From the NCBI GenBank assembly GCA_964536205.1, contig CAZHVT010000004.1, positions 17,960 through 81,959 of the forward strand: DNA of 64,000 nucleotides. Reading direction: 5' to 3'. The DNA comes from an uncultured Gammaproteobacteria bacterium. Its GTDB lineage: Bacteria; Patescibacteriota; Patescibacteriia; Magasanikbacterales; GCA-002688135. Every line of letters begins with the position of its first letter. Within the stretch, counting starts at the first letter, position 1. Shown one piece after another: positions 2,416 to 56,346 of the stretch. The position numbers and the translations under genes are program-made. The notes beneath the pieces are model-generated. The model worked only from the letters and a program-made list of their open reading frames with translations. It searched no databases and had not been told where the DNA came from.

Positions 2416-4497
2416 ATGCCCCGTCAATTCCCATTTGAAAAAGTACGAAACATCGGAATCATCGCTCATATCGATGCCGGAAAAACAACGGTAACGGAGC
2501 GCATTTTGTTTTACACAGGAAAGAAGCACAAAATCGGTGAGGTGCATGAAGGGGAGGCGACAATGGATTGGATGGAACAAGAACAAGAGCGAGGAATCAC
2601 AATTACATCTGCTGCAACAACAGCATTCTGGAATGATCATCGCTTAAACATTATTGATACGCCAGGACACATCGACTTTACTGTTGAGGTAAAGCGTTCA
2701 TTGCGAGTTCTTGATGGAGCGGTGGTGATTTTTGATGGTGTTGCCGGAGTAGAGCCACAATCAGAAACAAACTGGCATTACGCTGATGAATTTAGCGTGC
2801 CTCGCATTTGTTTCATTAATAAATTAGACAGAACGGGTGCGGATTTTTATGCAGACGTACAATCAATTCACGATCGTCTCACAAAAAATGCAGTACCGAT
2901 TCAGCTTCCAATCGGCGCAGAAGACGGATTTTTAGGCGTGATTGATTTGATTGAACAAAAATCTCATATCTTCAAAGATGATCTTGGAAAAGATGTTGAA
3001 GTTGGTGATATTCCGGAGGACATGAAAGAAAAAGCAGCAAAATATCGTGCAGAATTGATTGAAAAGATTGTAGAAAATGACGAAGATTTGATGAATGCAT
3101 ATTTGGAAGGAAATGAAATTCCAGTCGCAGATTTGAAACGCGTATTGCGAAAGGCTGTGGTTGCATTTGAGATTGTGCCTGTTTTATGTGGATCTGCATT
3201 GAAAAATAAGGGTGTCCAAATTTTGCTTGATGCGGTAGTAGATTATCTTCCATCACCACTAGATGTGCCCGCAACAAAAGGAAAAGATATTCATGATGAT
3301 GAAAAAGAAATCGAATGTCCTCCAGACGACTCAAAACCGTTTGCAGCACTCGCATTTAAAGTTGCGGTTGACCCATTCGTAGGACGATTAACTTTTTTCC
3401 GCGTCTATTCCGGAACACTCAAACAGGGGACAACAATTTTAAATAATACAACAGGGAAGAAAGAGCGTGTTGGTCGTATCGTTCGTATGCATGCAAATTC
3501 TCGTGAGGATGTGGATGAAGCATACGCAGGAGATATTGCAGCAGCTATCGGATTGAAAAATACATTTACTGGGCACACATTGACTGATGTAGATCATCCA
3601 TTAATGCTCGAGAAATTCACATTCCCAGAGCCAGTGATCTCCATGGCAGTTGAACCAAAAACAAAATCAGATCAAGAAAAAATGGGCGTAGCACTACAGA
3701 AACTCGCTGAAGAAGATCCAACATTCCGCGTCTATACAAATGAAGACACCATGCAAACGATTATTTGTGGGATGGGAGAACTTCATTTGGAAGTGATTGT
3801 TGATCGCATGCGCCGTGAATTTAAAGTTGAGGTTGGTGTTGGTCAGCCAGAAGTTGCATACAAAGAAACCATTACCAAAACAGCAGAAAATGTTGCCATC
3901 AAATACGTTAAGCAAACTGGTGGGCGCGGACAATACGGTCATGTTGTTATCAATATTGAACCACAAGAACGCGGTGTCGGATTTGAATTTATTGATAAAA
4001 TTAAAGGTGGGGTTATTCCAAAAGAATATATTCCAGCAGTTGAAAAGGGAATTAGTGGTGCACTTGATCGTGGAATTTTAGCCGGCTATCCTGTCATTGA
4101 TGTGAAAGCAACATTAGTTGACGGAAGTTATCATGATGTGGATTCATCTGAAGTCGCCTTTAAGATCGCAGGTTCTATGGCGATGCAAGCAGCTGCAAAA
4201 CAAGCAGGCTTGGCACTACTTGAACCAGTCATGAAAGTAGAGGTTTTGACACCAGAGCAATTCATGGGTGATGTGATCGGAAATTTAAACTCAAAACGTG
4301 GAACAGTTGATGAAATGTTAGAGCGAAAAGGTGTTCGAGTAGTTCGTGCACAAGTCCCTCTTTCAGAAATGTTTGGATATGCAACTGAATTGCGAAGTAT
4401 GACACAAGGACGTGCATCATACTCAATGGAGTTTGGTTCATACGAACAAGCACCACAAAATGTCGCAGCAGCAGTGATGGAGGGAAAAGCTAAGTAG
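2416..4497 (+). CDS. fusA: elongation factor G
   Basis: 693 aa. G-domain motifs [17 protein letters not shown] and NKLD, in str-operon order. Confidence 0.97.
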
Positions 4498-28321: not shown

Positions 28322-28786
28322 TTAAATAATCACCTTAACTAAGATCGCCAACAAAAACGCCTGCATCACAAAGCCATGTTTCAAAGACATGTCTTTTTTT
28401 CTGTCAACAAAATAATTATGAAACCAGAAATGCACACGATGAAATGCTTCCAGCCACGGATGTTTATATAACTCACACAATCCAACCAACAAATCGGGGA
28501 GTACAGAACCAACTAATCCCCACGCAACAATAGTAGCATTTACATTTGGAACATAAGCAAAAACCCAAGCGACGAGCATAACAGCAGCAAGTGCATCAAA
28601 ACTTACCTTAGCAAGGGCCTGTTTCATCTTCTTGCCACTTTTATATTCCTTATACAAATGAGCATCGCCATGAGGAATCATGTCGATCAAAAGATGCGAA
28701 ATAAAGCCCAAAACAAAGGCCCAGAAAGCCGTAGGGCTATTTTGAGCTACAACTGCTCCAACTGCGACATGAGTGGCGATTAGCAT
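28322..28786 (-). CDS. membrane-bound metal-dependent hydrolase-like protein (YdjM/DUF457-like)
   Basis: 154 aa with TM segments and HLLIDMIPHGDAH. Confidence 0.45.
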   Translation of the reverse strand: MLIATHVAVGAVVAQNSPTAFWAFVLGFISHLLIDMIPHGDAHLYKEYKSGKKMKQALAKVSFDALAAVMLVAWVFAYVPNVNATIVAWGLVGSVLPDLLVGLCELYKHPWLEAFHRVHFWFHNYFVDRKKDMSLKHGFVMQAFLLAILVKVII

Positions 28787-28961: not shown

Positions 28962-28990
28962 TTGACAAAATAACAAAAACATGATAGTAT
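28962..28990 (+). promoter_or_regulatory. strong sigma70-type promoter reading into the GC-rich island
   Basis: TTGACA, 17 nt, TAGTAT, about 60 nt upstream of the first island ORF. Confidence 0.5.
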
Positions 28991-29049
28991 ATGCGCGTAT
29001 TACATGAAGTAGTACGAGAACATTACAAGACGTAGGTTTTGGAGATGAC

Positions 29050-29265
29050 ATGCGGCGAATGTTGCGAAAAATAAAGCGCGTTATCCAGCACTGGCTGGAC
29101 GAGCAACGTGAGGCAATTTTCTTTTTCCGATACCTGTGGGTACGGACGAAAGTGGATTGCAGAATGGGTCTGATCGAGGAGTTTCTCTTCGACCCAAGCG
29201 CGTTGAAACAGCGCTACTTCGAAGAACGAAAGTTCGAGCAATCGCTGGCAGGTCGCTGGCGTTAG
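29050..29265 (+). CDS. hypothetical protein (island gene 1)
   Basis: 71 aa with a GGAG RBS. First ORF after the composition jump. Confidence 0.35.
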   Translation: MRRMLRKIKRVIQHWLDEQREAIFFFRYLWVRTKVDCRMGLIEEFLFDPSALKQRYFEERKFEQSLAGRWR

Positions 29266-29316
29266 CTTTCATATTGAGCCTGTTCCCGGGCTAAAAGAAA
29301 GGGGAGTGGAGCGAGC

Positions 29317-29628
29317 ATGAGTAAGAATTCCGTAGTCGTAGGTGATGGCATCACAGTGACGCGCGCGCAGTTGAAGCGCGCGCAGAAGCAGTATGCCAGA
29401 CGCAAAGGTGGCTTGCCGGGTTTCTGGCAGACAGCACTGGACCTCATGGGTCCGGAGCCGGAGCGGGTCAAGAAGACTCGTTCTGCCAAGCCGCGTCGGA
29501 AGCCGGTTGATACTGGTTTCTCGGAGGGTTACCTCGCTCAGCACAAGGCCGAGATCGGCCTGTCGAGTAAGGATCGGCGCCGCGAGCGTCGGGCCGCATC
29601 GAAGCGGTCTCGTCATCGTGACGAATAA
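29317..29628 (+). CDS. hypothetical highly basic protein (island gene 2)
   Basis: 103 aa. RBS GGGGAGTGGAG. K/R-rich C-terminal half (KKTRSAKPRRKP...RRRERRAASKRSRHRDE). Confidence 0.45.
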   Translation: MSKNSVVVGDGITVTRAQLKRAQKQYARRKGGLPGFWQTALDLMGPEPERVKKTRSAKPRRKPVDTGFSEGYLAQHKAEIGLSSKDRRRERRAASKRSRHRDE

Positions 29629-29800
29629 TCCTCGGCTTCGGCCAACCCCGAATCTACAAACTCTGGACTGTTGTGAAACAGACCACATAACCCGCGAGCA
29701 AGACCAAGGTCAAGTTCGCGGATCTAACTCGGTTGCTCAACAAAGTGTTGAGAGACCGTGAGGATCATTAACCCCATCCCTGGGGCAAAAGAATAAGGGC

Positions 29801-29869
29801 ATGGAGATGCAAATGTTGACGTTTGGCATTATCCAGCTGGCCGTTTTGGTCGGCGCCGTCATCCTGTAA
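29801..29869 (+). CDS. candidate 22-aa hydrophobic peptide (MEMQMLTFGIIQLAVLVGAVIL)
   Basis: Follows leader copy L1 (29757 CGTGAGGAT...AAAAGAATAAGGGC). Followed by hairpin 29893-29922. Confidence 0.3.
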   Translation: MEMQMLTFGIIQLAVLVGAVIL

Positions 29870-30002
29870 GGGTGGCTGGCGGGGGTGTCGCGGTTTACGA
29901 ACCTAGCGACACCTCTCCAACTTGAAAGCTTAATCATTCGATTCAGCTTTCGTGAGGAGACACACTCAAAGACCTTTGAAAAACACATAGTCAGGAGAGG
30001 TA

Positions 30003-30257
30003 ATGAACCCGGAATTGATGAATTTGTTGGTCGTACTGACCATGTGCTGGTTCTGCCTCGGCGCGATTGCTCACATGGTGGGTGGTCAAAAGTGGGCGAA
30101 CAAAGTCTGGAGATGGCCGTTCAAGATGATCGGAAAAGCCATCCGTTGGGTGTTGGTCCAGATTCGAGCTTTCATTCGTGAGGCTCTGGTCGGACTCTGG
30201 AATGCACTGCGAGGACGCAGAGGTAACCAAAACAACAACCGCGGCAACAACCCATGA
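30003..30257 (+). CDS. hypothetical 84-aa membrane protein: one TM helix, then an amphipathic basic helix and an RG/N-rich tail
   Basis: RBS AGGAGAGG. Leader CGTGAGGAG at 29951. Paired hairpins downstream at 30283-30355. Confidence 0.45.
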   Translation: MNPELMNLLVVLTMCWFCLGAIAHMVGGQKWANKVWRWPFKMIGKAIRWVLVQIRAFIREALVGLWNALRGRRGNQNNNRGNNP

Positions 30258-30383
30258 CTCAACCCTAACCCGCGAGCAGCATATGCGTCGCGGCAAGCCC
30301 TGTACCCAACGTGGTACAGGGATCCAAATCGATTTCGCAGTCCTGAATTGCGAAGTCACGAGGATTCATTCACAGGAGGAGAG

Positions 30384-30572
30384 ATGGAGAGTTTTCTGGG
30401 CAATGTCTGGGCGCTAGTCTGCCTTTGGGCTGGTCTGTGCATCTTCTATGCCATGATCAGCGCAGTCGTGATGTTCAAATACTCGGCGTGGGACATGTTC
30501 TTGCTGCCATTCAAGGCGATCATCATGCTGTGCAAAGGTCTCGGGAAACTCGTTCCCAGGACGTTCACCTAA
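30384..30572 (+). CDS. hypothetical 62-aa two-TM peptide
   Basis: RBS AGGAGGAGAG sits directly before ATG 30384. The upstream in-frame Met in the track lacks an RBS. Confidence 0.45.
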   Translation: MESFLGNVWALVCLWAGLCIFYAMISAVVMFKYSAWDMFLLPFKAIIMLCKGLGKLVPRTFT

Positions 30573-30617
30573 GAAGGGTGAGATCAAGAGTCAGGTGAAA
30601 ACACAATAAAAGGAGAA

Positions 30618-30683
30618 ATGATGGGAATCGAACTCATTCTGGGTCAGGCGCTTGTCTGCATCATGTACGCAGCTTTCCGCTAG
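30618..30683 (+). CDS. candidate 21-aa hydrophobic peptide (MMGIELILGQALVCIMYAAFR)
   Basis: RBS AAAAGGAGAA. Followed immediately by paired-hairpin module T1. Confidence 0.3.
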   Translation: MMGIELILGQALVCIMYAAFR

Positions 30684-30697
30684 GAGAGGTGTGTATC

Positions 30698-30750
30698 CGA
30701 GGATCTACGGATCCTCACAACGCAGCCGCGAACCAACATGGTTCGCGGCT
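30698..30750 (+). repeat. paired-hairpin module T1 (GAGGATC-tacg-GATCCTC, then CCGCGAACC-aacat-GGTTCGCGG)
   Basis: Two adjacent perfect stems. About 85% identical to T2 at 30966-31014. Confidence 0.6.
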
Positions 30751-30846
30751 CCAACTCGATCTCTGAGCACAGTATTCGTTCAGACTCGTGAGGAGATCTA
30801 CTGGTTACACCTAACCCCGGGTGGAAAGAAATGGGGAGGAGAGAGA

Positions 30847-30948
30847 ATGGACTGGCCAGGGATTCATCGAGACATGACGATTACAGCGATTTCGCTGGTA
30901 ACAATCATCTTTCTGTTCTGGGCATGCAGCGGCTCAAGCCTCTGCTAG
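30847..30948 (+). CDS. candidate 33-aa hydrophobic peptide (MDWPGIHRDMTITAISLVTIIFLFWACSGSSLC)
   Basis: Leader L2 (30787 CGTGAGGAG...ACCCCGGGTGGAAAGAAATGGGG), RBS GGAGGAGAGAG, followed by module T2. Confidence 0.35.
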   Translation: MDWPGIHRDMTITAISLVTIIFLFWACSGSSLC

Positions 30949-30965
30949 AAATTAACAACACATAT

Positions 30966-31014
30966 CGAGGGTCTACGGATCCTCGCGCAGTCCCGAACCA
31001 ACGCGGTTCGGGGC
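30966..31014 (+). repeat. paired-hairpin module T2
   Basis: GAGGGTC-tacg-GATCCTC, then CCCGAACC-aacgc-GGTTCGGGG. Confidence 0.6.
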
Positions 31015-31109
31015 TCCAAATCGGAAAGATTAATGAAAATTAAGCATCCGTGAGGAGTTACAAATAAAAGCCCTGACCCGGGGTAAAAGAAATGGGTTTT
31101 AGGAGGCAC

Positions 31110-31490
31110 ATGATCTTTTGGATCAGTCGTCACGAGCTGTCCCCGGCGCAGACCAAGGCTATCTTGGATCTGCACGGAGACGTTGAGGTAAAGCGACAGG
31201 AAGTCGTTTTCGATGAGGTGGGTGGTTTGAAATCGCTCATCGAGTCGGTAGATGAAGGAGACTTCGTCTACGCCGTGGCCGGTGCGCCGCACTACTTGGC
31301 AGCCGCTTTGAGTGGTTGTGAGTTCGGTGTTTTTCTCAATCACCCGGGTCGGCGTGCCAATGGCACGTTCGGTCTTCATTGCGTATTTCACGTGGTCGGT
31401 GGAGAGCTGGTAAAGGTCTGGGAAAACCCAGATCCGAACAGCGATGAGGGAGAGCGTCTCGATGTCACAGTCGAGCGTCCCATTCTTTAA
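31110..31490 (+). CDS. hypothetical 126-aa soluble protein (last island gene)
   Basis: Leader L3 (31049 CGTGAGGAG...GACCCGGGGTAAAAGAAATGGG), RBS AGGAGG. The ATG inside AAAGAAATGGG (31092) is in frame and is an alternative start. Confidence 0.45.
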   Translation: MIFWISRHELSPAQTKAILDLHGDVEVKRQEVVFDEVGGLKSLIESVDEGDFVYAVAGAPHYLAAALSGCEFGVFLNHPGRRANGTFGLHCVFHVVGGELVKVWENPDPNSDEGERLDVTVERPIL

Positions 31491-31568
31491 ACCAGAGGGC
31501 GTGCTATGGCACGTCACTCCAACTAAAATTTCAATGTATTGAAGTTTTTGAGGAGAAATGGGAAGAGC

Positions 31569-31596
31569 AAAAAACCGGCATTGTGCCGGTTTTTTG
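31569..31596. terminator. bidirectional terminator between the island and tRNA
   Basis: AAAAACCGGCA-ttgt-GCCGGTTTTTT. Confidence 0.6.
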
Positions 31597-31616
31597 TTTG
31601 CAGAAAAGCTTCTGAC

Positions 31617-31690
31617 TACCAGGGGGGAGAATTGAACTCCCGACCTCAGGCTTATGAGTCCTGCGCTCTAACCTTCTGAGCTACCCTGGT
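31617..31690 (-). tRNA. tRNA with anticodon CAU (elongator Met or Ile2-type)
   Basis: Minus-strand cloverleaf ACCAGGG-TA-GCTCAGAAGGTTAGAGC-G-CAGGA-CTCATAA-GCCTG-AGGTC-GGGAG-TTCAATT-CTCCC-CCCTGGT-A. CCA not encoded. Confidence 0.75.
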
Positions 31691-31746
31691 AGTCAATAGC
31701 TTTATGATTGCTAACGGCGATAGTATAAGAGAAATTGAAATGATCG

Positions 31747-35260: not shown

Positions 35261-36883
35261 CTAGCGACTACCCAATCCGGAAAGGAATGAGCTGTGTGGC
35301 ACAGGGCCATCCGGTCGCGGCGGGTTCATGACATCGTCACAGCGCTTCAGGCTGTGGCGAAACATCTTTGTGGAGCATGCAACACCAGCGCATACGCCAT
35401 CAGCGATGCATTCGGGAGCCATTCGTCGGCTGTCGAATGCGATCAGAACCAGGTCCTTCAGCTCCTCCCACGGAATCGTGGTTGGCTTGATGTTCAATGC
35501 AGAGCGCGTACCGTTGGCAAGCAGTGGTATGCGCGCATCGTAGAACCAGTTTTCAGCACCCGGAATCTGACCTTCAGCAATCAGCTGATGCTTGTTGTAG
35601 CCGTAGAGAGTCGTCGTTCCATGTCGACGTTCAGCCATGCGGATCATCCGCGTAAGCTGATCGAGATAGGTTTTACGATTCGTATCGCTGTTGATCCGGC
35701 CGACGTTGAGCTTCTTGAGAACGCGGAAATTCGTCAAAATCACGACATGACCAGTCTCCGGATTTCGGATGACAATGATCGCAGCTTGATCGAACTTCCT
35801 TGCGCATCGGTCGAGACCGAACGTTGTCGTTTCGAGAAATACGATCTTCATGGTCTTGCGACCTACAGGAATGTCGACGAGTTCTTTGTTCGCGTCATAC
35901 TCAGCGCGGCCAACCGTGAAGAAGTGCTGTTGCTCAACATGCTTCATGATGACGAGCATCTGCATCTGAACAGGTCGATCGGTACGCCACAAATCACTAT
36001 GCTCCGACAGACTGCCAGGTTCGGCAAACATCAGTCGGGGAAACATCGCGAACTCGTAAAGCTCGATCTTGTTCTCTCGGACTCTCTGCTCGAGATGCCG
36101 ACAGTACGTGAGCAGCTGCTCCATGGCCGGATTGCTTTTGCAATCCAACTCTTGCGCCAGCGCATCGGGAGTTGCAGAGTAGAACGTCTGACCTTCCTCT
36201 CCGAACTGCTCCTTCATGAACTGCATCACCACCTCATATACAGAAGTGGGGTGAGCAAGGTCTGCTGGGGCAACATGTGCCGGCCAACGCATGCGTCCGA
36301 TCACGAGCTTCTCGAGGAAGTCATAGATCGGGTCATCAGGCGTATTGATGTTCTGCATCATCCGCACGAGCTGTGAAAGCTCGAGTGGTCCGCAGTACAT
36401 GCGCTTGTGGCGTGCATCTTCTTCGTCGACGTACTCCACAAAATCCTCGAGCTGCGCAGGAAGATTATCGCCAAGCGCATCGGCAATCAGCCGAATGCTA
36501 GAGGTGTTGACCTCACGTCCGAGTTCCGGATCCGGATGCTCGTCGAATCGACCACCACCAGTACCCACGAACAGAATCCCGCAATGTTCCTCGAGCTCAT
36601 CGGCAGTCAAATTGCAGATCCGAATATCATCGAATTTCGGATACACACCCAGGTCATTGCGCCCGGCGTCCGCATCTTTCCAGTCGCAGTAACCCTGCTC
36701 CTCGAGCAGATCTCGAATCTCCGGATTGTCCCAACTCAATGTGCCAGTAGCATCAATGAGATGATGAGGAGTGGTAAGATCCACACCCATGCTTTCGCCA
36801 AAGTGACGAAGCAAGATCAGAGCACAAAGCTCATCCAGATGTGGCTGTCGATGCATCACAATTACTCGTTTATCATTTTTCAA
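35261..36883 (-). CDS. GC-rich 540-aa protein; N-terminal motifs resemble MYG1/UPF0160 metal-dependent hydrolases (tentative)
   Basis: VIVMHRQPHLDELCALILL and ILFVGTGGGRFDEH resemble the H-x-x-H-x-DE...VGG...DHH signature. About 58% GC against an AT-rich genome. Long antisense ORFs are composition artefacts. Confidence 0.4.
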   Translation of the reverse strand: MKNDKRVIVMHRQPHLDELCALILLRHFGESMGVDLTTPHHLIDATGTLSWDNPEIRDLLEEQGYCDWKDADAGRNDLGVYPKFDDIRICNLTADELEEHCGILFVGTGGGRFDEHPDPELGREVNTSSIRLIADALGDNLPAQLEDFVEYVDEEDARHKRMYCGPLELSQLVRMMQNINTPDDPIYDFLEKLVIGRMRWPAHVAPADLAHPTSVYEVVMQFMKEQFGEEGQTFYSATPDALAQELDCKSNPAMEQLLTYCRHLEQRVRENKIELYEFAMFPRLMFAEPGSLSEHSDLWRTDRPVQMQMLVIMKHVEQQHFFTVGRAEYDANKELVDIPVGRKTMKIVFLETTTFGLDRCARKFDQAAIIVIRNPETGHVVILTNFRVLKKLNVGRINSDTNRKTYLDQLTRMIRMAERRHGTTTLYGYNKHQLIAEGQIPGAENWFYDARIPLLANGTRSALNIKPTTIPWEELKDLVLIAFDSRRMAPECIADGVCAGVACSTKMFRHSLKRCDDVMNPPRPDGPVPHSSFLSGLGSR

Positions 36884-43212: not shown

Positions 43213-43482
43213 ATGGAAGTCATTTCGATCACTTCACCCCCGATCGATCGTAACAAACAAATTCAATTCTGTCTGAAGTGCAGCATCATCATTCACGAGC
43301 CGATTGATGAATTCAGCGTGTGTAACCACAATTCCAGTATTACCCTGGAGTTGACCGGTTTCGATCACGGAACTGGTGTCGAATGCATGGAGCGCGACTG
43401 CGCTTTCAATGGGATTGGACGATCGCCAAGCGAGCTGTCCAGAATGTTGATTGGACACGCCGAGCGTCACAAAAAGAGTTGA
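43213..43482 (+). CDS. hypothetical Cys-rich small protein
   Basis: RBS AAAGGAGG 5 nt before ATG 43213. Followed by terminator 43488-43517. Slightly GC-richer than flanks. Confidence 0.35.
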   Translation: MEVISITSPPIDRNKQIQFCLKCSIIIHEPIDEFSVCNHNSSITLELTGFDHGTGVECMERDCAFNGIGRSPSELSRMLIGHAERHKKS

Positions 43483-43487
43483 ACGCA

Positions 43488-43517
43488 GCCCTGAACCTAT
43501 GTGGTTCGGGGCTTTTT
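43488..43517 (+). terminator. terminator of the same hairpin family as the island modules
   Basis: GCCCTGAACC-tatgt-GGTTCGGGGC-TTTTT. Compare CCCGAACC-aacgc-GGTTCGGGG at 30992. Confidence 0.55.
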
Positions 43518-43542
43518 AATTCTCTTTAACAAGCCCAAAACC

Positions 43543-43585
43543 TATTATACTACAAGCCCAAGGGGCTTGTAGTATAATAGGATCT
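43543..43585. repeat. perfect 19-bp palindrome CCTATTATACTACAAGCCC / GGGCTTGTAGTATAATAGG. A third (direct) copy at 43705-43725 overlaps the pth stop
   Basis: The two arms are separated by 3 nt. The copy at 43705 (CCTATTATACAACAAGCCC) is inverted relative to the right arm and lies about 120 nt away, a MITE-like geometry. Confidence 0.55.
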
Positions 43586-47345: not shown

Positions 47346-50300
47346 ATGATGCGTGCTATTGGCAGAATGACGACTCAATATCTTGTCAGATTTGCTATCG
47401 CGTTGGTGATAAGTGCCTTCGCGTTTCTTCGGGTTGTGATGGCATATGATTTATCGACCGCAAGTTATGACAGTAAAAATGTGTCCGTTCAATCTCAATG
47501 TGCACATCCATATGAATTGGAATTCGACGATGATGGAGATCGAATGTATATCGCATGTCTCACAAATGACATTTTTCAATACACATTGACCACTGCGTGG
47601 GATGTTTCAACAGCTTCATACGCCAGTAAATCATTTGATACATCAGGAGAAGAGAGCGGAACAGTAACACTTGCATTTAACTCTGATGGTACAAAAATGT
47701 ATTCCGGTGGAACAACAAACGACACGGTATTTCAATACTCACTTTCAACAGCATTTGATGTTTCTACAGCGACGTACGATAGTGTGAGTTTCGATGTAGG
47801 AAGTCAAGAAAGTAATTTCTTCAATTTAGAGTTCAGTACTGACGGTACAAAAATGTATGTGATTGGAAATGTCTCTGACAAAATTCATCAGTATACACTT
47901 TCAACTGCATGGGATCTCTCAACAGCAAGCTACGACAGCAAAACACTTAATGTAAACTCACAAGCCATCAATCCACTTGGAATGCAGTTTCACACAAGTG
48001 GTACGTATGTATATGTGATCAATCACTCAACCGACAGGGTCTATCAGTATTCGATGACAACAGCATGGGATGTATCAACAGGAAGTTACGATAATGTCAG
48101 TTTTTATGTAGGAAGTCAGGATGGAAGTGGATACGATCTCGCATTTAAAGACGACGATGGAACGAAGATGTTTGTAACAGGAAACTCGAATGATCGAATT
48201 TATCAATACACTCTCACGAATTTCGACACCACTGATCCGACATTATCATCTTCATCCCCAGCAGATAATGCAACAGACGTCACAACAACGGACAACATCG
48301 TACTGACATTTTCAGAGGCCGTAGATGCAGAATCTGGAGATATTGTGATCTACAAAACATCTGATGATTCAACGGTTGAAACAATGGATGTGGGTGGTGC
48401 TGCTGTGTCTGGTTCAGGCTCAACTGAAATTACAGTAAATCCTACAAGCAACCTTGATGATTCCACAGAATTTTATGTGATTATTGATGCAACAGCGTTT
48501 GATGATGCATCTTCAAACAGTTACGCTGGAATTTCCGCATCAACAACATTGAGTTTCACAACTGCAGATGAAACCAATCCGACGGTTTCAACATATTCTC
48601 CAGCAGATAACGCAACAAGTGTATCGCAAACCGCAAATCTCGTTCTTACATTTTCAGAAGCAGTCGATGTAGAATCCGGAAATATTGTAATTTATAAATC
48701 AAGCGATGATTCAGTCGCAGAAACAATTGCTGTTACAGACTCACAGGTTACCGGAACAGGAACTACAACCATCACTATTAATCCATCAATCACATTTGCA
48801 GGAGACACGGAATATTACGTCCAAATTGCTGCAACAGGATTTGATGATTCCTCAAGCAATAGCTACGCCGGAATTACTGACACAACAACATGGAGCTTCA
48901 CAGTGGAAGATGCAAACGGCCCAACACTTTCAAATGAAGGGCCAGAAGGACAAAAAAATATCGGAACAAAAAGTGCAACGCTTTCAGCCACCACAAACGA
49001 AACATCAAATTGTAGATATTCCACGTCATCAAGTGCTGCATGGGCAGCCATGACAGCTTTTGAAACAACAGGAGGAACAAGTCATGCATCAGCAATTTCA
49101 GGATTAGAAAACGGAACAACATATAATTATTATGTGTTCTGTCAGGATAGCGTTGGAAATCAAAGTTCAAAATCAACTATCACATTTAATATTGCACAGC
49201 GAGAACGTTCAGGTGGAAGCAGTGGTGCTGGAGCAGGAATTTCAAGTGGGAGAAGTGGTGGAGCGGTAGGAAGTTCTACTAAAAGCGCAAAGCGTGTGAG
49301 TGTAAAGGCTGGAAGGAAGGTTGATGTAGGTTCGGTGACACGAGGAAGCACAAGTCTCACATTGCCAAAAAGTTCAACGGTAATGTTCAAAGTAAAAGAA
49401 AAAAAAGTTGACATGAACATCGCAAAAATAGAAGGACGCGGAACAAATCGAACGGTTGAAATGCATCTCCCGTCAGAACAAAAAATGTTGAAACTAAAAT
49501 GGAACGAGATTGCTGCGGTTGATATTGATGGAGATGGAGTCGGGGATCTTGCGGTGAAATTTGCAGCTGGCGTGAAGGATAAAATAGAAGTTACGTTATC
49601 CACAAAAATTCCGCTTGATGCGGTTGTGCAAAATCATCCAATTGAAGTTGAGGAAGAGGTTGAGGAGGTGAAGCTAGAAATTCCGGTGGAGACAGAGAAG
49701 GTTGAGGAAAAAGATGAGGAAGTAGAAGTTGAGAAGGTTAAGGAGGTAGAAGAAGTAGTTGAGGAGGTGATCAAGACTGCGCCAGTTATTGAGCCAGTTC
49801 TACCAGTACCCCCAAGCGATCAAATCGCACCACAAGTTGAAATCTTCGTGAAAGATGCACAATTCCAATTCAAACGAGATGTAGGAGTTGGTACGAGAGG
49901 AGAGGATGTAAAAGAATTACAAAAATTCCTAAATTCAAACGGATTTCCGGTCTCACAATTCGGCGCAGGATCACAAGGAAATGAATCAGAGTATTTCGGA
50001 AACAGAACGCGCGCAGCTCTCATCAAATGGCAAAAAGCTCAAAAATTCATAAAACCAAATGGAGTGATGGGAATTGAAACGCGCGCGGTGATGAATGGAT
50101 CGCAAATAATTATGATTAAAAAAGGTGAGAAAGCGCAAGAAGTTTCAGCTCCTGTTAAAGTTACTCAACCAATAATAGAGAATATTAAAAAAGAACCAGT
50201 CGCCACAAATAATTCGCTACACAGTTTCGCGCGGAATTTGAGAAGAGGGGATAGAGGAGAAGATGTAAAACAATTACAAATATTCCTCAATAATTTCGGA

Positions 50301-53068: not shown

Positions 53069-53860
53069 TCATATTTCGGTCACTATATTGAACGGTTCAA
53101 TATGAGAACAATGACCTGTTTTTTCATCGACATCAACAACGATTCCCGAAAGTATCGCTTCTCCAGATTCCGCAAAGTCATGTGAACGTGTGTGATCTGG
53201 ATGAAGAAAATTATTGAGAATCGTATCTTGTTTCACTCCTAAAACGCCATTACGATCACCACACATACCAATATCGGTTATGTAGCCAGTTCCTTGAGGG
53301 AGGATTCTCGCATCATTTGTTTGTACGTGTGTATGCGTTCCCCAAGCCGCGGAAACACGTCCATCCAAATGCCAACCCATCGCAATCCGCTCGCTCGTTG
53401 TTTCTCCATGAAAATCGAGCAGCGCGATTGAGATGTCTTTGTGTTCTGGCATGTTCAAGATTGTATCGATCACAGCAAACGGAGAATCAACCGTTTCCTT
53501 CATAAACATCTCACCCTGTAAGTTTAGCACAATAATAGTTGTACCAGCAACATCGAATGTGCGAAACCCCACACCAGGCGTTCCACCCGGATAATTCGCC
53601 GGACGAATCACATCAGCATCATCCAACAGAGGAATACCAGGAGGTTTTGAGAATGTATGATTACCACCAGTAAAACAATCGATATTCAGAGCGCGCATTT
53701 CATCTAAGGTACGCTGTGTAATCCCTTTTCCATGCGCTAAATTCTCAGCCTGAACAATCGTAAAGTCAGGCTTAAGATCAGCCTGCAATCCCGGCAGCTC
53801 TTTAGTGAGCGCCTTTCTTCCAAGTTTTCCTACAACATCGCCGAAGATTAAAAATCTCAT
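53069..53860 (-). CDS. ymdB: YmdB-like metallophosphoesterase (2',3'-cyclic-nucleotide phosphodiesterase family)
   Basis: Internal Met gives MRFLIFGDVVGKLGR...QAENLAHGKG...GNH. The longer track ORF N-terminus is not conserved. Confidence 0.85.
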   Translation of the reverse strand: MRFLIFGDVVGKLGRKALTKELPGLQADLKPDFTIVQAENLAHGKGITQRTLDEMRALNIDCFTGGNHTFSKPPGIPLLDDADVIRPANYPGGTPGVGFRTFDVAGTTIIVLNLQGEMFMKETVDSPFAVIDTILNMPEHKDISIALLDFHGETTSERIAMGWHLDGRVSAAWGTHTHVQTNDARILPQGTGYITDIGMCGDRNGVLGVKQDTILNNFLHPDHTRSHDFAESGEAILSGIVVDVDEKTGHCSHIEPFNIVTEI

Positions 53861-53861
53861 A

Positions 53862-54803
53862 TTAGTTCTTTTGGAGTAATGCCGCTTTAAATTTCTCTTC
53901 CACATCTGCCAATGTATTGAACGAATCAGAAAGAGAAGGCCAATCTTTGGCGACGGCATACGTATGACACAATCCAAATACAGCAGCTTGTTCACGCTTC
54001 AATGCAGCAAGATCAGAATCCTTCTGATCAAAGAATGAGGCACAGTCAGTAGCTCGTTTCGATGCGAGCGGTAGAGCAAAATACACGAAATGACCAAATT
54101 CAGATGGAGTCAATCCTTTTTTAGCTACTCGTTGAGCTAAAGACGTAATTGCTGCTCCTCCAATAAGCATATGATCGCTGTTCTGCTCTCCTTCAGTATA
54201 CAACGTAATAAAGTATGCTGATGCAGCATCGTACAATTCGGACGCCGAAACAGCTTTGTTGCGTACGGGTTTCGTGATGTATCTATAAAAACCATCTTTG
54301 TATGAAACCTTTGCTGCTTCCCAGGCTTTTTGCAAATCATCTTTTTGGATGAAGACATGTGGAAATTCAGCAGGATCATGAAGAAAGATTCGATCACCAT
54401 CGTAATCATACGCTAGAACATAATGATCGACACCCTTCAGGTACGTCGCATTGGGATTATAATTCAGATAACCCATATCAAGAGGGCCAAGAACTGCAGC
54501 TCCAGAATCGAGCGCCTGCTTCAATTGTTCAAAAGGAAAATCATCAGGAGATTCCGACACATGAACGTCATAGCTAAAGCCAAGTACATCTAATACTTTG
54601 GTGATACCAAGATCCGGTTCAAGTGATTGATTGTTGAAGTACAACAGATTCTTGTCTGTATCCATGGAGGCACCCAATCCAACACCAGAGAGAACTTCAA
54701 TTGTCGCAGGCGAAACATCTTCTCCAATCGAGCGTAAAAGCATCGAAGCAGAATGTGCATAGCAGTATGCTCCGTTTCCGATATAGGGAACGTAGGTTGC
54801 CAT
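53862..54803 (-). CDS. hypothetical protein with an N-terminal conserved Cys (possible papain-like/BtrH-N-like fold, tentative)
   Basis: 313 aa, GNGAYCYAHSASMLL near the N-terminus. Inserted between rny and ymdB. Confidence 0.45.
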   Translation of the reverse strand: MATYVPYIGNGAYCYAHSASMLLRSIGEDVSPATIEVLSGVGLGASMDTDKNLLYFNNQSLEPDLGITKVLDVLGFSYDVHVSESPDDFPFEQLKQALDSGAAVLGPLDMGYLNYNPNATYLKGVDHYVLAYDYDGDRIFLHDPAEFPHVFIQKDDLQKAWEAAKVSYKDGFYRYITKPVRNKAVSASELYDAASAYFITLYTEGEQNSDHMLIGGAAITSLAQRVAKKGLTPSEFGHFVYFALPLASKRATDCASFFDQKDSDLAALKREQAAVFGLCHTYAVAKDWPSLSDSFNTLADVEEKFKAALLQKN

Positions 54804-54807
54804 AGGT

Positions 54808-56346
54808 TTATCGTGCTAATTCGATAACCCGCTGCTCACGAATCACGGTTACGCGAATCTCTCCTGGATATTGCAATTCTTGTTCAATTTTGTGTGCGAT
54901 GTCGCGCGCCAAAGTATGCGCAGCATAATCATCAACCTTAGAAGGATGCACAAACACACGAACCTCACGCCCCGCAGAAATCGCATATGCTTTTTCAACA
55001 CCAGGAAATGATGTCGCCACATTTTCCAAACCTTCCAATCGTTTAATATAGAATTCGTATGTTCCTTTTCGTGCGCCCGGACGTGCACCAGAAAGTGCAT
55101 CGGCTGCCTTACAAATCGCACCTAACAAAGTTTTCGGATTATCCTCATGATGAGCAATCGAACAATACGCAATCTCTTCAGGAACATTAAATTTCTTCAT
55201 CAATGCATATCCCAATTCCGGATGACCACCGTCATTTTCATGATCAATAGACTTTCCAATATCATGGAATAATCCAGCTGTTTTCGCTAAAGTCACATCC
55301 ATTCCTAATTCACCAGCCATCATCCCACATAAATGCGCAACTTCGAGTGAATGCATCATATTATTTTGACCATAAGAAGTTCGGTATTTCAATCGCCCTA
55401 AAATCGATGTCAATTTCGGATCAAACCCCGTCAATCCCATTTCATACAACATTTCCTCACCAGCCTTTTTGATATCAAGCGCCAATTCCTTTTTAGCTAA
55501 CTCAATTGTTTCTTCAATACGCGCTGGTTGAATACGACCATCCTCAAGTAATTTCTCCAACGTAATCCGCGCAATCTGACGACGAATAGGGGAGAATCCA
55601 GAAATCGTAATCGCTCCGGGTGTATCATCAATAATCAACTCACAGCCTGTAACTTTTTCTAGGGTCTTGATATTACGACCTTCCTTACCAATAATTCGAC
55701 CCTTCATATCTTCAGAAGGAAGCTCAACAGTTGTAGTTGTGGTTTCAGCAGAGTGAGACCCTGCGTAACGCTGCATCACAGTCGTCAAAATTTTCTTCGC
55801 CTTTAATTCAAATTCTTCAGTATTACGCTTTTGCAACTTAAACATACGCTGCGCTAAATCGTCAGCATATTGTTTTTCCATTTTTCCGTACATTTGTTCG
55901 AGTGCTTCTTCCTTCGTCAAACCTGCGATAGTTTGTAATTTATCGATCGCTTCCTGACGAACTTGCGCCAAATCATTCTTATGTTTCTCAACGGCATCAA
56001 TTTTCTGTACTAATTTTTGTTTGGTAGCTTCGATTTCCTTTTGATTATTCTCAACAGCAACTTCACGCTTCTCAATGCGTTGAATCATGCTTTTGAACTC
56101 ATTGCGAGATTTTTGCTCTTCACGCTTTGCTTCATCAACGATTTTCATCGCCTTATCTTTTGCAGATAACAATGCTTCTCGCTCTTTTGTTTTAGCATCA
56201 TCGATGATTTTCTTAGCTTTCGCTTCGATAGAATTAAGTTGTCCTTGTGCGATGGTGCGGCGGGCAACATATCCGATGGCAGCACCAATCAGACCTGTTA
56301 CTGCTGCAATCGCAAGTGCAATTGTAGTAGACATAAAAACGCTCAA
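54808..56346 (-). CDS. rny: ribonuclease Y
   Basis: N-terminal TM, coiled coil, KH domain, HD domain (HDIGK...). 512 aa. Confidence 0.9.
   Translation of the reverse strand: MSVFMSTTIALAIAAVTGLIGAAIGYVARRTIAQGQLNSIEAKAKKIIDDAKTKEREALLSAKDKAMKIVDEAKREEQKSRNEFKSMIQRIEKREVAVENNQKEIEATKQKLVQKIDAVEKHKNDLAQVRQEAIDKLQTIAGLTKEEALEQMYGKMEKQYADDLAQRMFKLQKRNTEEFELKAKKILTTVMQRYAGSHSAETTTTTVELPSEDMKGRIIGKEGRNIKTLEKVTGCELIIDDTPGAITISGFSPIRRQIARITLEKLLEDGRIQPARIEETIELAKKELALDIKKAGEEMLYEMGLTGFDPKLTSILGRLKYRTSYGQNNMMHSLEVAHLCGMMAGELGMDVTLAKTAGLFHDIGKSIDHENDGGHPELGYALMKKFNVPEEIAYCSIAHHEDNPKTLLGAICKAADALSGARPGARKGTYEFYIKRLEGLENVATSFPGVEKAYAISAGREVRVFVHPSKVDDYAAHTLARDIAHKIEQELQYPGEIRVTVIREQRVIELAR

Follow-up and report, generated by a model that had tools for sequence, protein, structure and literature searches.

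Are the G+C-rich hairpins that recur behind the stop codons of small genes in a candidate phyla radiation (CPR) bacterium transcription terminators, pieces of foreign DNA, or something else? The question is raised by a 64-kb stretch of DNA (contig CAZHVT010000004.1, positions 17,960 to 81,959; below, the window), part of the chromosome of a marine bacterium of the Parcubacteria. Across positions 29000 to 31600 of the window the G+C content is 49 to 54%, versus a background of about 41%, and it is here that an earlier note described paired-hairpin terminator modules in an island of foreign origin. We found instead that the hairpins are parts of a composite RNA module of 58 to 102 nucleotides (nt), present in six copies (29664-31555), all on the plus strand. 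The module is a real, well-supported structured RNA motif and a member of no described family. As for its function, we favor the reading that it is an intercistronic signal for mRNA processing and stabilization, to which we give a probability of roughly 0.5.

From 5′ to 3′, the module consists of an optional hairpin, P0; a short spacer; a second hairpin, P1; and, after 0 or 1 nt, a two-part hairpin, P2/P3. P0 comes in two types, GAGGRTC-UACG-GAUCCUC and GGACUGUU-GUGA-AACAG. P1 is a G+C-rich hairpin of 7 to 13 bp whose sequence varies. The layout of P2/P3 is N-UCC, AAM, the P3 hairpin, YGA, GGA-N′; P2 is formed by pairing of N-UCC with GGA-N′, the AAM and YGA triplets face each other in an internal loop that is conserved in sequence, and P3 is variable, being conserved in structure only. 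In modules of the window type, P2 is 4 to 5 bp, the loop is 3 × 3 nt, and P3 is 8 to 12 bp. We assign UCC to P2 because the N that precedes it covaries with the base that follows GGA. A tRNA-like reading of P1 plus UCCA was rejected, as ARAGORN found only the three real tRNAs.

In two such modules, the first two-thirds from the 5′ end are what the earlier note had called T1 and T2. All of the sequences it quoted are where it had placed them: in T1, GAGGATC-tacg-GATCCTC at 30699-30716 and GCCGCGAACC-aacat-GGTTCGCGGC at 30725-30749; in T2, GAGGGTC-tacg-GATCCTC at 30967-30984 and CCCGAACC-aacgc-GGTTCGGGG at 30992-31013. Its value of about 85% identity was likewise reproduced: of 49 aligned bases, 7 are mismatched (∼86% identity), and there is an indel of 4 nt. 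However, while the two stems of each unit are real, a third hairpin, TCCAAMTCG...CGTGAGGAG, had been overlooked in both (30750-30795 and 31015-31057). A "third variant" also consists of genuine stems, CCCTGTACC-caacgt-GGTACAGGG at 30298-30321 and TTCGCA...TGCGAA at 30334-30354, but these are P1 and P3 and not homologues of the P0-P1 pair. Three further copies, with cores at 29723, 29916, and 31518, complete the six.

Syntenic islands in two related genomes, represented by contigs L001 and L004, contain 8 and 6 copies, respectively, so that 20 copies are available in all, every one on the coding strand. A regular expression for the core plus the tail found the 6 window copies within a 2.6-kb segment, versus 0.03 expected from shuffles of that segment. 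In the other 61 kb of the window it had one chance match, at 49637, and it had none on the minus strand. We also built a covariance model, R1, on P2/P3 and searched it against 108 kb consisting of the window and related loci. The 20 copies scored 38 to 52 bits, and the next match in the 108 kb scored at most 11 bits; neither the 49637 site nor a hairpin at 43488, to which the earlier note had extended the family, was matched by R1. A repeated hairpin family thus exists, as had been claimed, and both the regular expression and R1 confine it to the G+C-rich segment and do not find it scattered over the window. A search for related stems, GAACC-N3-7-GGTTC, gave only 3 occurrences in the 64-kb window, versus 0.21 expected.

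Every helix of the module is backed by compensatory changes. In P2/P3, 90% of the cells are paired, versus 32 to 51% in slid controls, whose partners are offset by one, two, or three columns; double changes occur in 9 of the 12 pairs, and the observed covariation was attained in none of 500 shuffles (but see below on the kinship of the copies). RNAalifold independently recovered the identical P2/P3 fold, with compensatory changes in 10 of 14 pairs. The closing pair is C-G in 15 copies and A-U in 4, and the nucleotides of the UCCAAM/YGAGGA internal loop show little or no variation, in contrast to the helices, which drift. For P0 and P1 of the T1-like subfamily, 93% of the cells are paired, versus 23 to 55% in the slid controls, and five pairs are compensatory. 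When each copy was folded separately with ViennaRNA, all adopted the module arrangement, with z-scores of −2.8 to −6.2.

The structure also has a strand. The plus strand is more stable than its complement in 16 of the 20 modules (mean difference, −4.95 kcal/mol; Wilcoxon P = 0.0025). An A·C mismatch on one strand is a G·U pair on the other, and interior A·C mismatches number 2 on the plus strand versus 15 on the minus strand. In six copies the P0 loop is cUACGg, which is of the UNCG type, and the GUGA loop of the second P0 type is of the GNRA type; UNCG and GNRA tetraloops are RNA stability motifs. Because of the folding bias, the A·C asymmetry, and these tetraloops, the data point to a structure that is read on the sense transcript, and not to a palindrome in duplex DNA or a hairpin of bottom-strand DNA.

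Rfam searches of the island at the gathering thresholds and at E ≤ 10, and of L001 and L004 at E ≤ 0.1, returned only tRNAs and chance-level matches, and known ribozymes, riboswitches, and antitermination RNAs were rejected because of this result. A hammerhead reading of CGUGAGGAG was rejected as well; there is no CUGANGA between the hairpins and no Rfam match. A kink-turn fits one strand of the internal loop, the nonbulged one, in which GA lies beside GGAG. The bulged strand, however, has the GA needed for the tandem G·A pairs that follow the 3-nt bulge of a kink-turn in only two copies and lacks it in 18 of 20, reading UC, UU, GG, UG, or UA after AAM in most, and this identity was also discarded.

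Two more distant loci, L007 and L147, which encode homologues (59 to 61% identical) of the last protein of the island, have a G+C-rich hairpin abutting a hairpin of 19 to 20 bp after their open reading frames (ORFs). The second hairpin is continuous, and its base reads UCC...GGA. These hairpins differ from the modules in primary sequence and go undetected by R1. Because it is kept in L007 and L147 in spite of this, the architecture of two abutting hairpins predates the sequence family. Module families are homogeneous within a lineage and peculiar to it, as L147 illustrates.

Are the modules terminators? P1 does supply a G+C-rich stem-loop shortly after a stop codon, as an intrinsic terminator would, but no T-run follows any of the six modules; P1 is followed by (N)TCCAAM. 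A consensus scan, which requires at least 5 Ts in 8 nt, called no island module terminator-like. T-tracts were found only at 43513-43517 and 31590-31596, in two true intrinsic terminators, the hairpin at 43488 and the terminator of the island's own transcription unit (31568-31596). All six modules lie inside that unit, five of them between ORFs. We therefore rejected terminator function, which the earlier note had proposed, on the grounds that a U-tract is lacking, that the location is intraoperonic, and that the unit has a canonical terminator of its own. The correction is worth making, as the misannotation is a tempting one: G+C-rich hairpins after stop codons are not necessarily terminators.

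The hairpin about 12 kb away had been taken as a sign of a second foreign fragment or of a family of mobile terminator hairpins. The sequence, GCCCTGAACC-tatgt-GGTTCGGGGC-TTTTT, is indeed present at 43488-43517, but it is a single P1-like hairpin without P0, P2, or P3. It is the canonical terminator of an 89-amino-acid (aa) Cys-rich ORF that has its own promoter-like site, TTGACA-17-TAGTAT, and whose orthologue (62% identity) occupies the same position, between dprA and pth, in the related contig L151. The gene is thus a conserved, syntenic host gene, and its reading as a second foreign fragment is not supported. The hairpin agrees with P1 of T2 at 24 of 29 positions, and a GCAG flank is common to both; the likeness is nevertheless not statistically convincing, as its one seeded match, an 11-mer (E = 0.63), does not stand out from other chance matches between the modules and the rest of the window. 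The orthologue has a different terminator, GAGGACC-taag-GGTCCTC-T7 (L151, 3272-3300). This one resembles P0 (GAGGATC-tacg-GATCCTC), and the window's own resembles P1, a likeness that may reflect chance or the borrowing of a hairpin. An inverted repeat of 19 bp, CCTATTATACTACAAGCCC ... GGGCTTGTAGTATAATAGG (43541-43581), lies 25 nt 3′ of the 43488 terminator, between the 89-aa ORF and the convergent pth.

Because it has one promoter at its start and one canonical terminator at its end, the G+C-rich segment is predicted to be a single transcription unit, and the placement of the two sites would give a single polycistronic RNA. The promoter, the only good promoter-like site that a consensus scan found on the plus strand of the segment, sits just 5′ of the G+C-rich onset at about 29000; homology between the flanks of the window and L004 reaches position 28999. 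Eight co-oriented small ORFs (A to H; 21 to 126 aa) are encoded, most of them hydrophobic; for several, conservation between strains is seen at the peptide level. Modules follow six of the eight (B, C, D, F, G, and H), and there is none before the first ORF, after A, or between E and F. Five modules separate ORFs of like orientation, without a promoter-like site in between, and the sixth comes after the final ORF. A Shine-Dalgarno (SD) sequence distinct from the module, 19 to 53 nt past its GAGGAG, serves each ORF that lies downstream.

Neither the island ORFs nor the ORF at 43213 had a match in Pfam, PHROGs, NCBIfam, or PDB, and no family was detectable for ORF B in the first three. All three islands retain ORF B, in first or second position. 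ORF H belongs to a conserved family with 12 homologues among 5.8 billion proteins, all metagenomic or from Parcubacteria. The hydrophobic ORFs of 21 to 33 aa (C, F, and G) and their counterparts in L004 and L001 are conserved as peptides (e.g., MEMQMLTFGIIQLAVLVGAVIL versus MHMLTYGIIQLAVLVGAVIL); probably these are genuine small peptides of the membrane, overlooked or misstarted in gene calling. A second repeat, CCCGGG-N2-3-AAAGAAAKGGG, is found at 29285-29304, 30816-30835, and 31077-31096, in the 5′ leaders just upstream of the SD sequences of ORFs B, G, and H; a variant at 29781-29799 precedes ORF C, and the motif is present in L001 and L004, too.

The same locus holds a G+C-rich segment in all three related genomes (window, L001, and L004), but with different gene contents. 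L004 is without most of ORF A and has a 301-aa ORF in place of the 33-aa ORF G, and L001 carries three additional ORFs downstream of ORF H, with a separate module behind each. In the ORF G swap, the homology between the window and L004 is lost immediately past TCCAACTCG and picks up again at the following P0. Copies differ in how P1 types, P3 types, and ORFs are combined; for example, P0 and P1 of T1 match L004 4815-4878, and its P3 matches L001 4203-4254. Judged by these alignments, the modules are, at a minimum, rearrangement hot spots. One L001 module is itself interrupted: an AT-rich insertion of about 165 nt (∼4026-4190), carrying a promoter-like TTGAAC-17-TAGTAT, interrupts a P1 hairpin of the CCGCGAGT...ACTCGCGG type in its loop and 5′ arm; an intact copy of this module is at L001 4740-4823.

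Of the foreign island that had been proposed, the high G+C content is confirmed; a foreign origin is doubtful. There was no Phage_integrase match in the 20 larger ORFs of the window that were scanned, nor in the genes on either side of the L001 and L004 islands. INPHARED phages and PLSDB plasmids gave no DNA or protein match to the island, and the ORF H family is absent from IMG/VR, where 11 pattern matches were attributed to chance, the hairpins being absent. All of the matches inspected among those listed by a metagenome pattern scan were also due to chance, mostly in high-G+C contigs, which is not evidence of absence. An integrative element targeted to the adjacent tRNA-Met gene was rejected: there is no partial tRNA-Met duplicate at the left boundary, no repeat of at least 12 nt joins the two ends, and the promoter and terminator are common to three strains. 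We regard the segment, as far as sequence comparison goes, as a hypervariable resident operon and not a classical integrated element, because it occupies the same locus in three relatives with a shared promoter and terminator and has no tRNA-linked repeat, no integrase among the ORFs scanned, and no phage or plasmid similarity.

What, then, would such a module do in an operon? Selective processing and stabilization of RNA (SRPS) combines intercistronic stem-loops with endonuclease cleavage, as in Escherichia coli operons (PMC10667835), and the reading that we favor is of this kind. An endoribonuclease would cut at or within P2/P3; P0/P1 would then block 3′ exonucleases on the upstream cistron, and the remnant of P2/P3 would cap the 5′ end of the downstream cistron, so that the cistrons of the operon would gain different half-lives. 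Here we infer both the cleavage and the nuclease. The latter could be RNase III, acting on a helix equivalent to roughly 18 to 20 bp, or RNase Y, which is encoded in the window and could act at the conserved single-stranded nucleotides. In Bacillus subtilis, RNase III is reported to target long-range intramolecular structures and the specificity of RNase Y to rest on distributed features (PMC11780869). The dimensions of the helices are P2 of 4 to 5 bp, a 3 × 3 loop, and P3 of 8 to 12 bp in the window type and 19 to 20 continuous bp in L007 and L147. Single-cut RNase III sites of phage T7 consist of a helix with an internal loop, which P2/P3 resembles. The T7 early-region sites are an SRPS example, and with SRPS stem-loops in general the modules share their place between the cistrons of one operon, the lack of U-tracts, and a stable 3′ hairpin beside a longer helix with an internal loop; differential stability of transcript segments is the expected outcome. 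They differ in being one composite with a conserved UCCAAM/YGAGGA, repeated after nearly every gene and common to three genomes.

Several points weigh against processing and stabilization. The 20 copies are related, in part paralogous, and come from three genomes, which means that the shuffle and Wilcoxon statistics overstate their independence; the slid-partner controls are unaffected by this kinship. Transcription of the segment as one RNA, and any cleavage of it, are predictions from DNA sequence. P2 plus P3 of the window type amounts to 12 to 17 real bp interrupted by a 3 × 3 loop, which is short for a classical RNase III site of about two helical turns, often with an internal loop that directs a single cut, and the consensus of RNase Y is weak, so that its presence in the window says little. 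The strictly conserved UCCAAM/YGAGGA loop suits recognition by a specific protein, or recognition as single-stranded DNA, at least as well as it suits a generic nuclease site. Finally, breakpoints of gene swaps between strains fall at the module, and a role purely in RNA stability does not require such breakpoints. If the processing reading is true, polycistronic mRNAs of the CPR/Parcubacteria, a phylum in which almost nothing is known of RNA metabolism, have in the module a compact and portable mark of punctuation, and its conserved recognition loop could lead to the nuclease or to the protein that binds it. The operon that it marks is hypervariable and encodes conserved small membrane peptides, which in episymbiotic CPR bacteria are plausible factors in host interaction or competition.

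In the main novel rival to this reading, the modules would be structure-specific recombination sites like the attC sites of integrons and the segment would be an integron-like array of promoterless small-ORF cassettes, expressed from one resident promoter and exchanged at the conserved core. Like such an array, the segment has small co-oriented ORFs, most of them, the last included, followed by a folded site that is conserved more in structure than in sequence; it has a conserved promoter at one end; and its gene content varies among three close relatives at the same locus. The homology break directly after TCCAACTCG in the ORF G swap (33 aa versus 301 aa), the reassortment of P1 types, P3 types, and ORFs, and the homogeneous lineage-specific module families, as in L147, would all be expected of it, and the order P2, internal loop, P3 recalls an attC site, which consists of an R-box, an unpaired spacer, and an L-box (the lower stem, spacer, and upper stem). 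However, RYYYAAC-N35-130-GTTRRRY pairs number zero on either strand of the three islands, and the module ends in YGAGGAG. Canonical attC sites were thereby rejected, having neither R″/R′ cores here nor an integrase in the scanned ORFs: no IntI was found in the window, and there is no tyrosine recombinase among the 20 larger window ORFs scanned or beside the L001 and L004 islands. Recombination at attC proceeds via the bottom strand, whereas folding and the wobble asymmetry favor the sense (top) strand, and the modules have an extra abutting P1 hairpin and the UNCG/GNRA tetraloops that are hallmarks of RNA. The loss of ORF A in L004 is an indel that ends without a module. With coding identity at about 80%, hairpin sequence that is under no constraint can be expected to diverge past the point where it aligns, and because of this, much of the apparent mosaic needs no site-specific recombination; drift plus ordinary recombination could give the same picture of a strain-variable array with some breakpoints at the module. 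We consider attC-like sites unlikely for these reasons, and a little more so the specific version in which the CPR harbor a previously unrecognized integron-like platform, with a resident promoter, small-ORF cassettes that each end in a folded P1-UCCAAM-P3-YGAGGA site, and a non-IntI recombinase, encoded elsewhere, that swaps them at the conserved core. Such a platform, if it existed, would explain the swaps, the reassortment of P1, P3, and ORFs, and the distinct base composition, and the modules would define a new cassette-capture system.

Among functions at the RNA level, the modules might be regulated attenuators or pause sites, at which P1 stalls or partly terminates transcription and ORF B or P2/P3 promotes read-through in the manner of nut/N or put. 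P1 is a strong G+C-rich hairpin just after stop codons, and the three islands share ORF B, with its arginine-rich tail, as first or second gene. The put RNAs of phage HK022 are two abutting hairpins, which the modules recall, and HK022 put and lambda nut likewise have two adjacent stem-loops in the nascent transcript and a small arginine-rich protein encoded upstream. Yet P1 is never followed by a U-tract, there are no terminators to override, and canonical hairpin-plus-T-run terminators are used where expected, at 31568-31596 and 43488-43517. Antitermination normally uses one or two sites per operon and not one for nearly every gene; moreover, the modules have no sequence similarity to put or nut and no match to an Rfam antitermination family, and ORF B has no detectable family. 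We judge this explanation rather unlikely, and we see still less chance that P2/P3 is the site of a specific RNA-binding protein that controls translation or localization of the mRNAs of small membrane proteins, with GAGGAG as a sequestered SD-like element. The near-invariance of UCCAAM/YGAGGA amid drifting helices would fit such a site, and CUCC/GGAG mimics the pairing of anti-SD and SD, but each downstream ORF has a separate SD well beyond GAGGAG, the last module (P2/P3, 31517-31555) has no ORF downstream, and no candidate for the protein was identified. Least credible to us, and in our opinion very improbable, is that the hairpins are selfish mobile elements of the repetitive extragenic palindrome (REP) or miniature inverted-repeat transposable element (MITE) kind that have spread as far as 43488. 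The ORFs ahead of T1 and T2 are unrelated, yet P0 plus P1 of the two show about 86% identity, and the 43488 terminator (24/29 with T2 P1, GCAG flank) and that of its L151 orthologue resemble P1 and P0. REP elements and bacterial interspersed mosaic elements, too, are repeated imperfect palindromes located between genes in operons and can stabilize the upstream mRNA. But REPs are scattered genome-wide in both orientations, have a GTAG-type head, and are associated with REP-associated tyrosine transposases (RAYTs), none of which was seen in the 64-kb window and the ORFs scanned. The copies in the window are limited to one 2.6-kb operon and one orientation, no transposase or RAYT-like gene is among the ORFs examined, the 43488 similarity is at the level of chance (E = 0.63), and the 43213 gene is conserved and syntenic; a family of mobile terminator hairpins, as had been supposed, is not borne out.

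TABLE 1 Positions of the modules, ORFs, and associated features in the window
Feature	Position	Strand	Description
Promoter	28962-28990	+	Sigma-70-like, TTGACA-17-TAGTAT with TG extension; conserved in L001 and L004
ORF A	29050-29265	+	71 aa; first gene of operon; no module before or after
ORF B	29317-29628	+	103 aa; arginine-rich C terminus; 70% identity to L004 homologue
Module W1	29664-29765	+	P0′, 29664-29685 (GUGA loop); 49.1 bits
W1 helices (fold)	29692-29765	+	P1, 29692-29721 (CCGCGAG...TTCGCGG); P2/P3, 29722-29765 (A-TCT-AAC...GTGA-GGA-T)
ORF C	29801-29869	+	22-aa hydrophobic peptide; conserved in L004 (MHMLTYGIIQLAVLVGAVIL)
Module W2	29883-29959	+	P1, 29883-29914; P2/P3, 29915-29959, core TCCAACTTG, tail CGTGAGGAG; 47.8 bits
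ORF D	30003-30257	+	84-aa membrane protein; relatives in L001 and L004
Module W3	30270-30365	+	Third variant of earlier note; prehairpin, 30270-30293; 50.2 bits
W3 helices	30298-30365	+	P1, 30298-30321 (CCCTGTACC/GGTACAGGG); P2/P3, 30322-30365 (A-TCC-AAA...CGA-GGA-T); P3 is TTCGCAG/TTGCGAA
ORF E	30384-30572	+	62 aa; two hydrophobic segments; no module between E and F
ORF F	30618-30683	+	21 aa; hydrophobic; precedes module W5
Module W5	30699-30795	+	T1 plus third hairpin; P0, 30699-30716 (cUACGg); P1, 30725-30749; 39.5 bits
W5 3′ part (P2/P3)	30750-30795	+	Core TCCAACTCG, 30750-30758; P3, 30759-30786; tail CGTGAGGAG, 30787-30795
ORF G	30847-30948	+	33-aa hydrophobic peptide; L004 slot holds 301-aa ORF
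Module W6	30967-31057	+	T2 plus third hairpin; P0, 30967-30984; P1, 30990-31014; 42.8 bits
W6 3′ part (P2/P3)	31015-31057	+	Core TCCAAATCG, 31015-31023; P3, 31024-31048; tail CGTGAGGAG, 31049-31057
ORF H	31110-31490	+	126 aa; conserved family without assigned function; last ORF of operon
Module W7	31498-31555	+	After last ORF; P1, 31498-31515; P2/P3, 31517-31555, core TCCAACTAA, tail TTGAGGAG; 42.6 bits
Operon terminator	31568-31596	+	Canonical intrinsic terminator, CAAAAAACCGGCA-ttg-TGCCGGTTTTTTG, hairpin plus T7; conserved in L001 and L004
tRNA-Met	31616-31691	−	Flanks operon; no partial duplicate at left boundary
Cys-rich ORF	43213-43482	+	89 aa
Terminator of Cys-rich ORF	43488-43517	+	Intrinsic terminator, 10-bp stem, T5; not a module copy
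YmdB	53069-53995	−	Near RNase Y
RNase Y	54808-56346	−	Candidate processing nuclease

The neighbors of the G+C-rich segment are a gene for a 154-aa membrane protein (28322-28786, minus strand) on the left and the tRNA-Met gene on the right (Table 1). Genes in the window include those for EF-G, EF-Tu, SecY, Adk, Map, aminoacyl-tRNA synthetases, RelA/SpoT, IF-2, RNase Y, and YmdB; ScpB, ParA/ParB, TopA, and DprA were assigned to the chromosomal context through synteny. A gene of the Peptidase_C39-like kind (53862-54803) separates those for RNase Y and YmdB, which lie close together and make a candidate machinery for processing the modules. The sole named relative is "Parcubacteria group bacterium isolate ARS125," and a scan of a genome collection with the flanking Metallophos gene returned one related metagenome-assembled genome (MAG) and no other.

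Elsewhere in these loci we noted some further features. Directly upstream of the ORF H homologues in L149 and L150, a sigma-70-like promoter is followed by a structured leader of about 1 kb, in which there are matches to the S-adenosylmethionine (SAM) riboswitch SAM-I at L149 261-433 and 597-765 and L150 270-465, with scores of 33.2, 30.7, and 32.5 bits that are below the gathering threshold of 44.4. These leaders may contain tandem SAM-riboswitch-like aptamers, which, if so, would hint at a link of the ORF H family to SAM or methionine metabolism. A 540-aa ORF without a Pfam match (35261-36883, minus strand) lies in a second G+C-rich stretch of the window (∼50% versus 41% background). A G+C-rich gene that likewise has no Pfam match, and that resembles it in placement, follows parB in L001 and L005. 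Lastly, in the related MAG a gene of the bAvd/23S_rRNA_IVP family, whose product is a four-helix-bundle protein like the accessory proteins of diversity-generating retroelements, lies between the Metallophos gene and parA (L004, 7933-8292, and L005, 2003-2368, both on the minus strand), and the gene calls of the window-type contigs L142 to L145 show no gene at this position.

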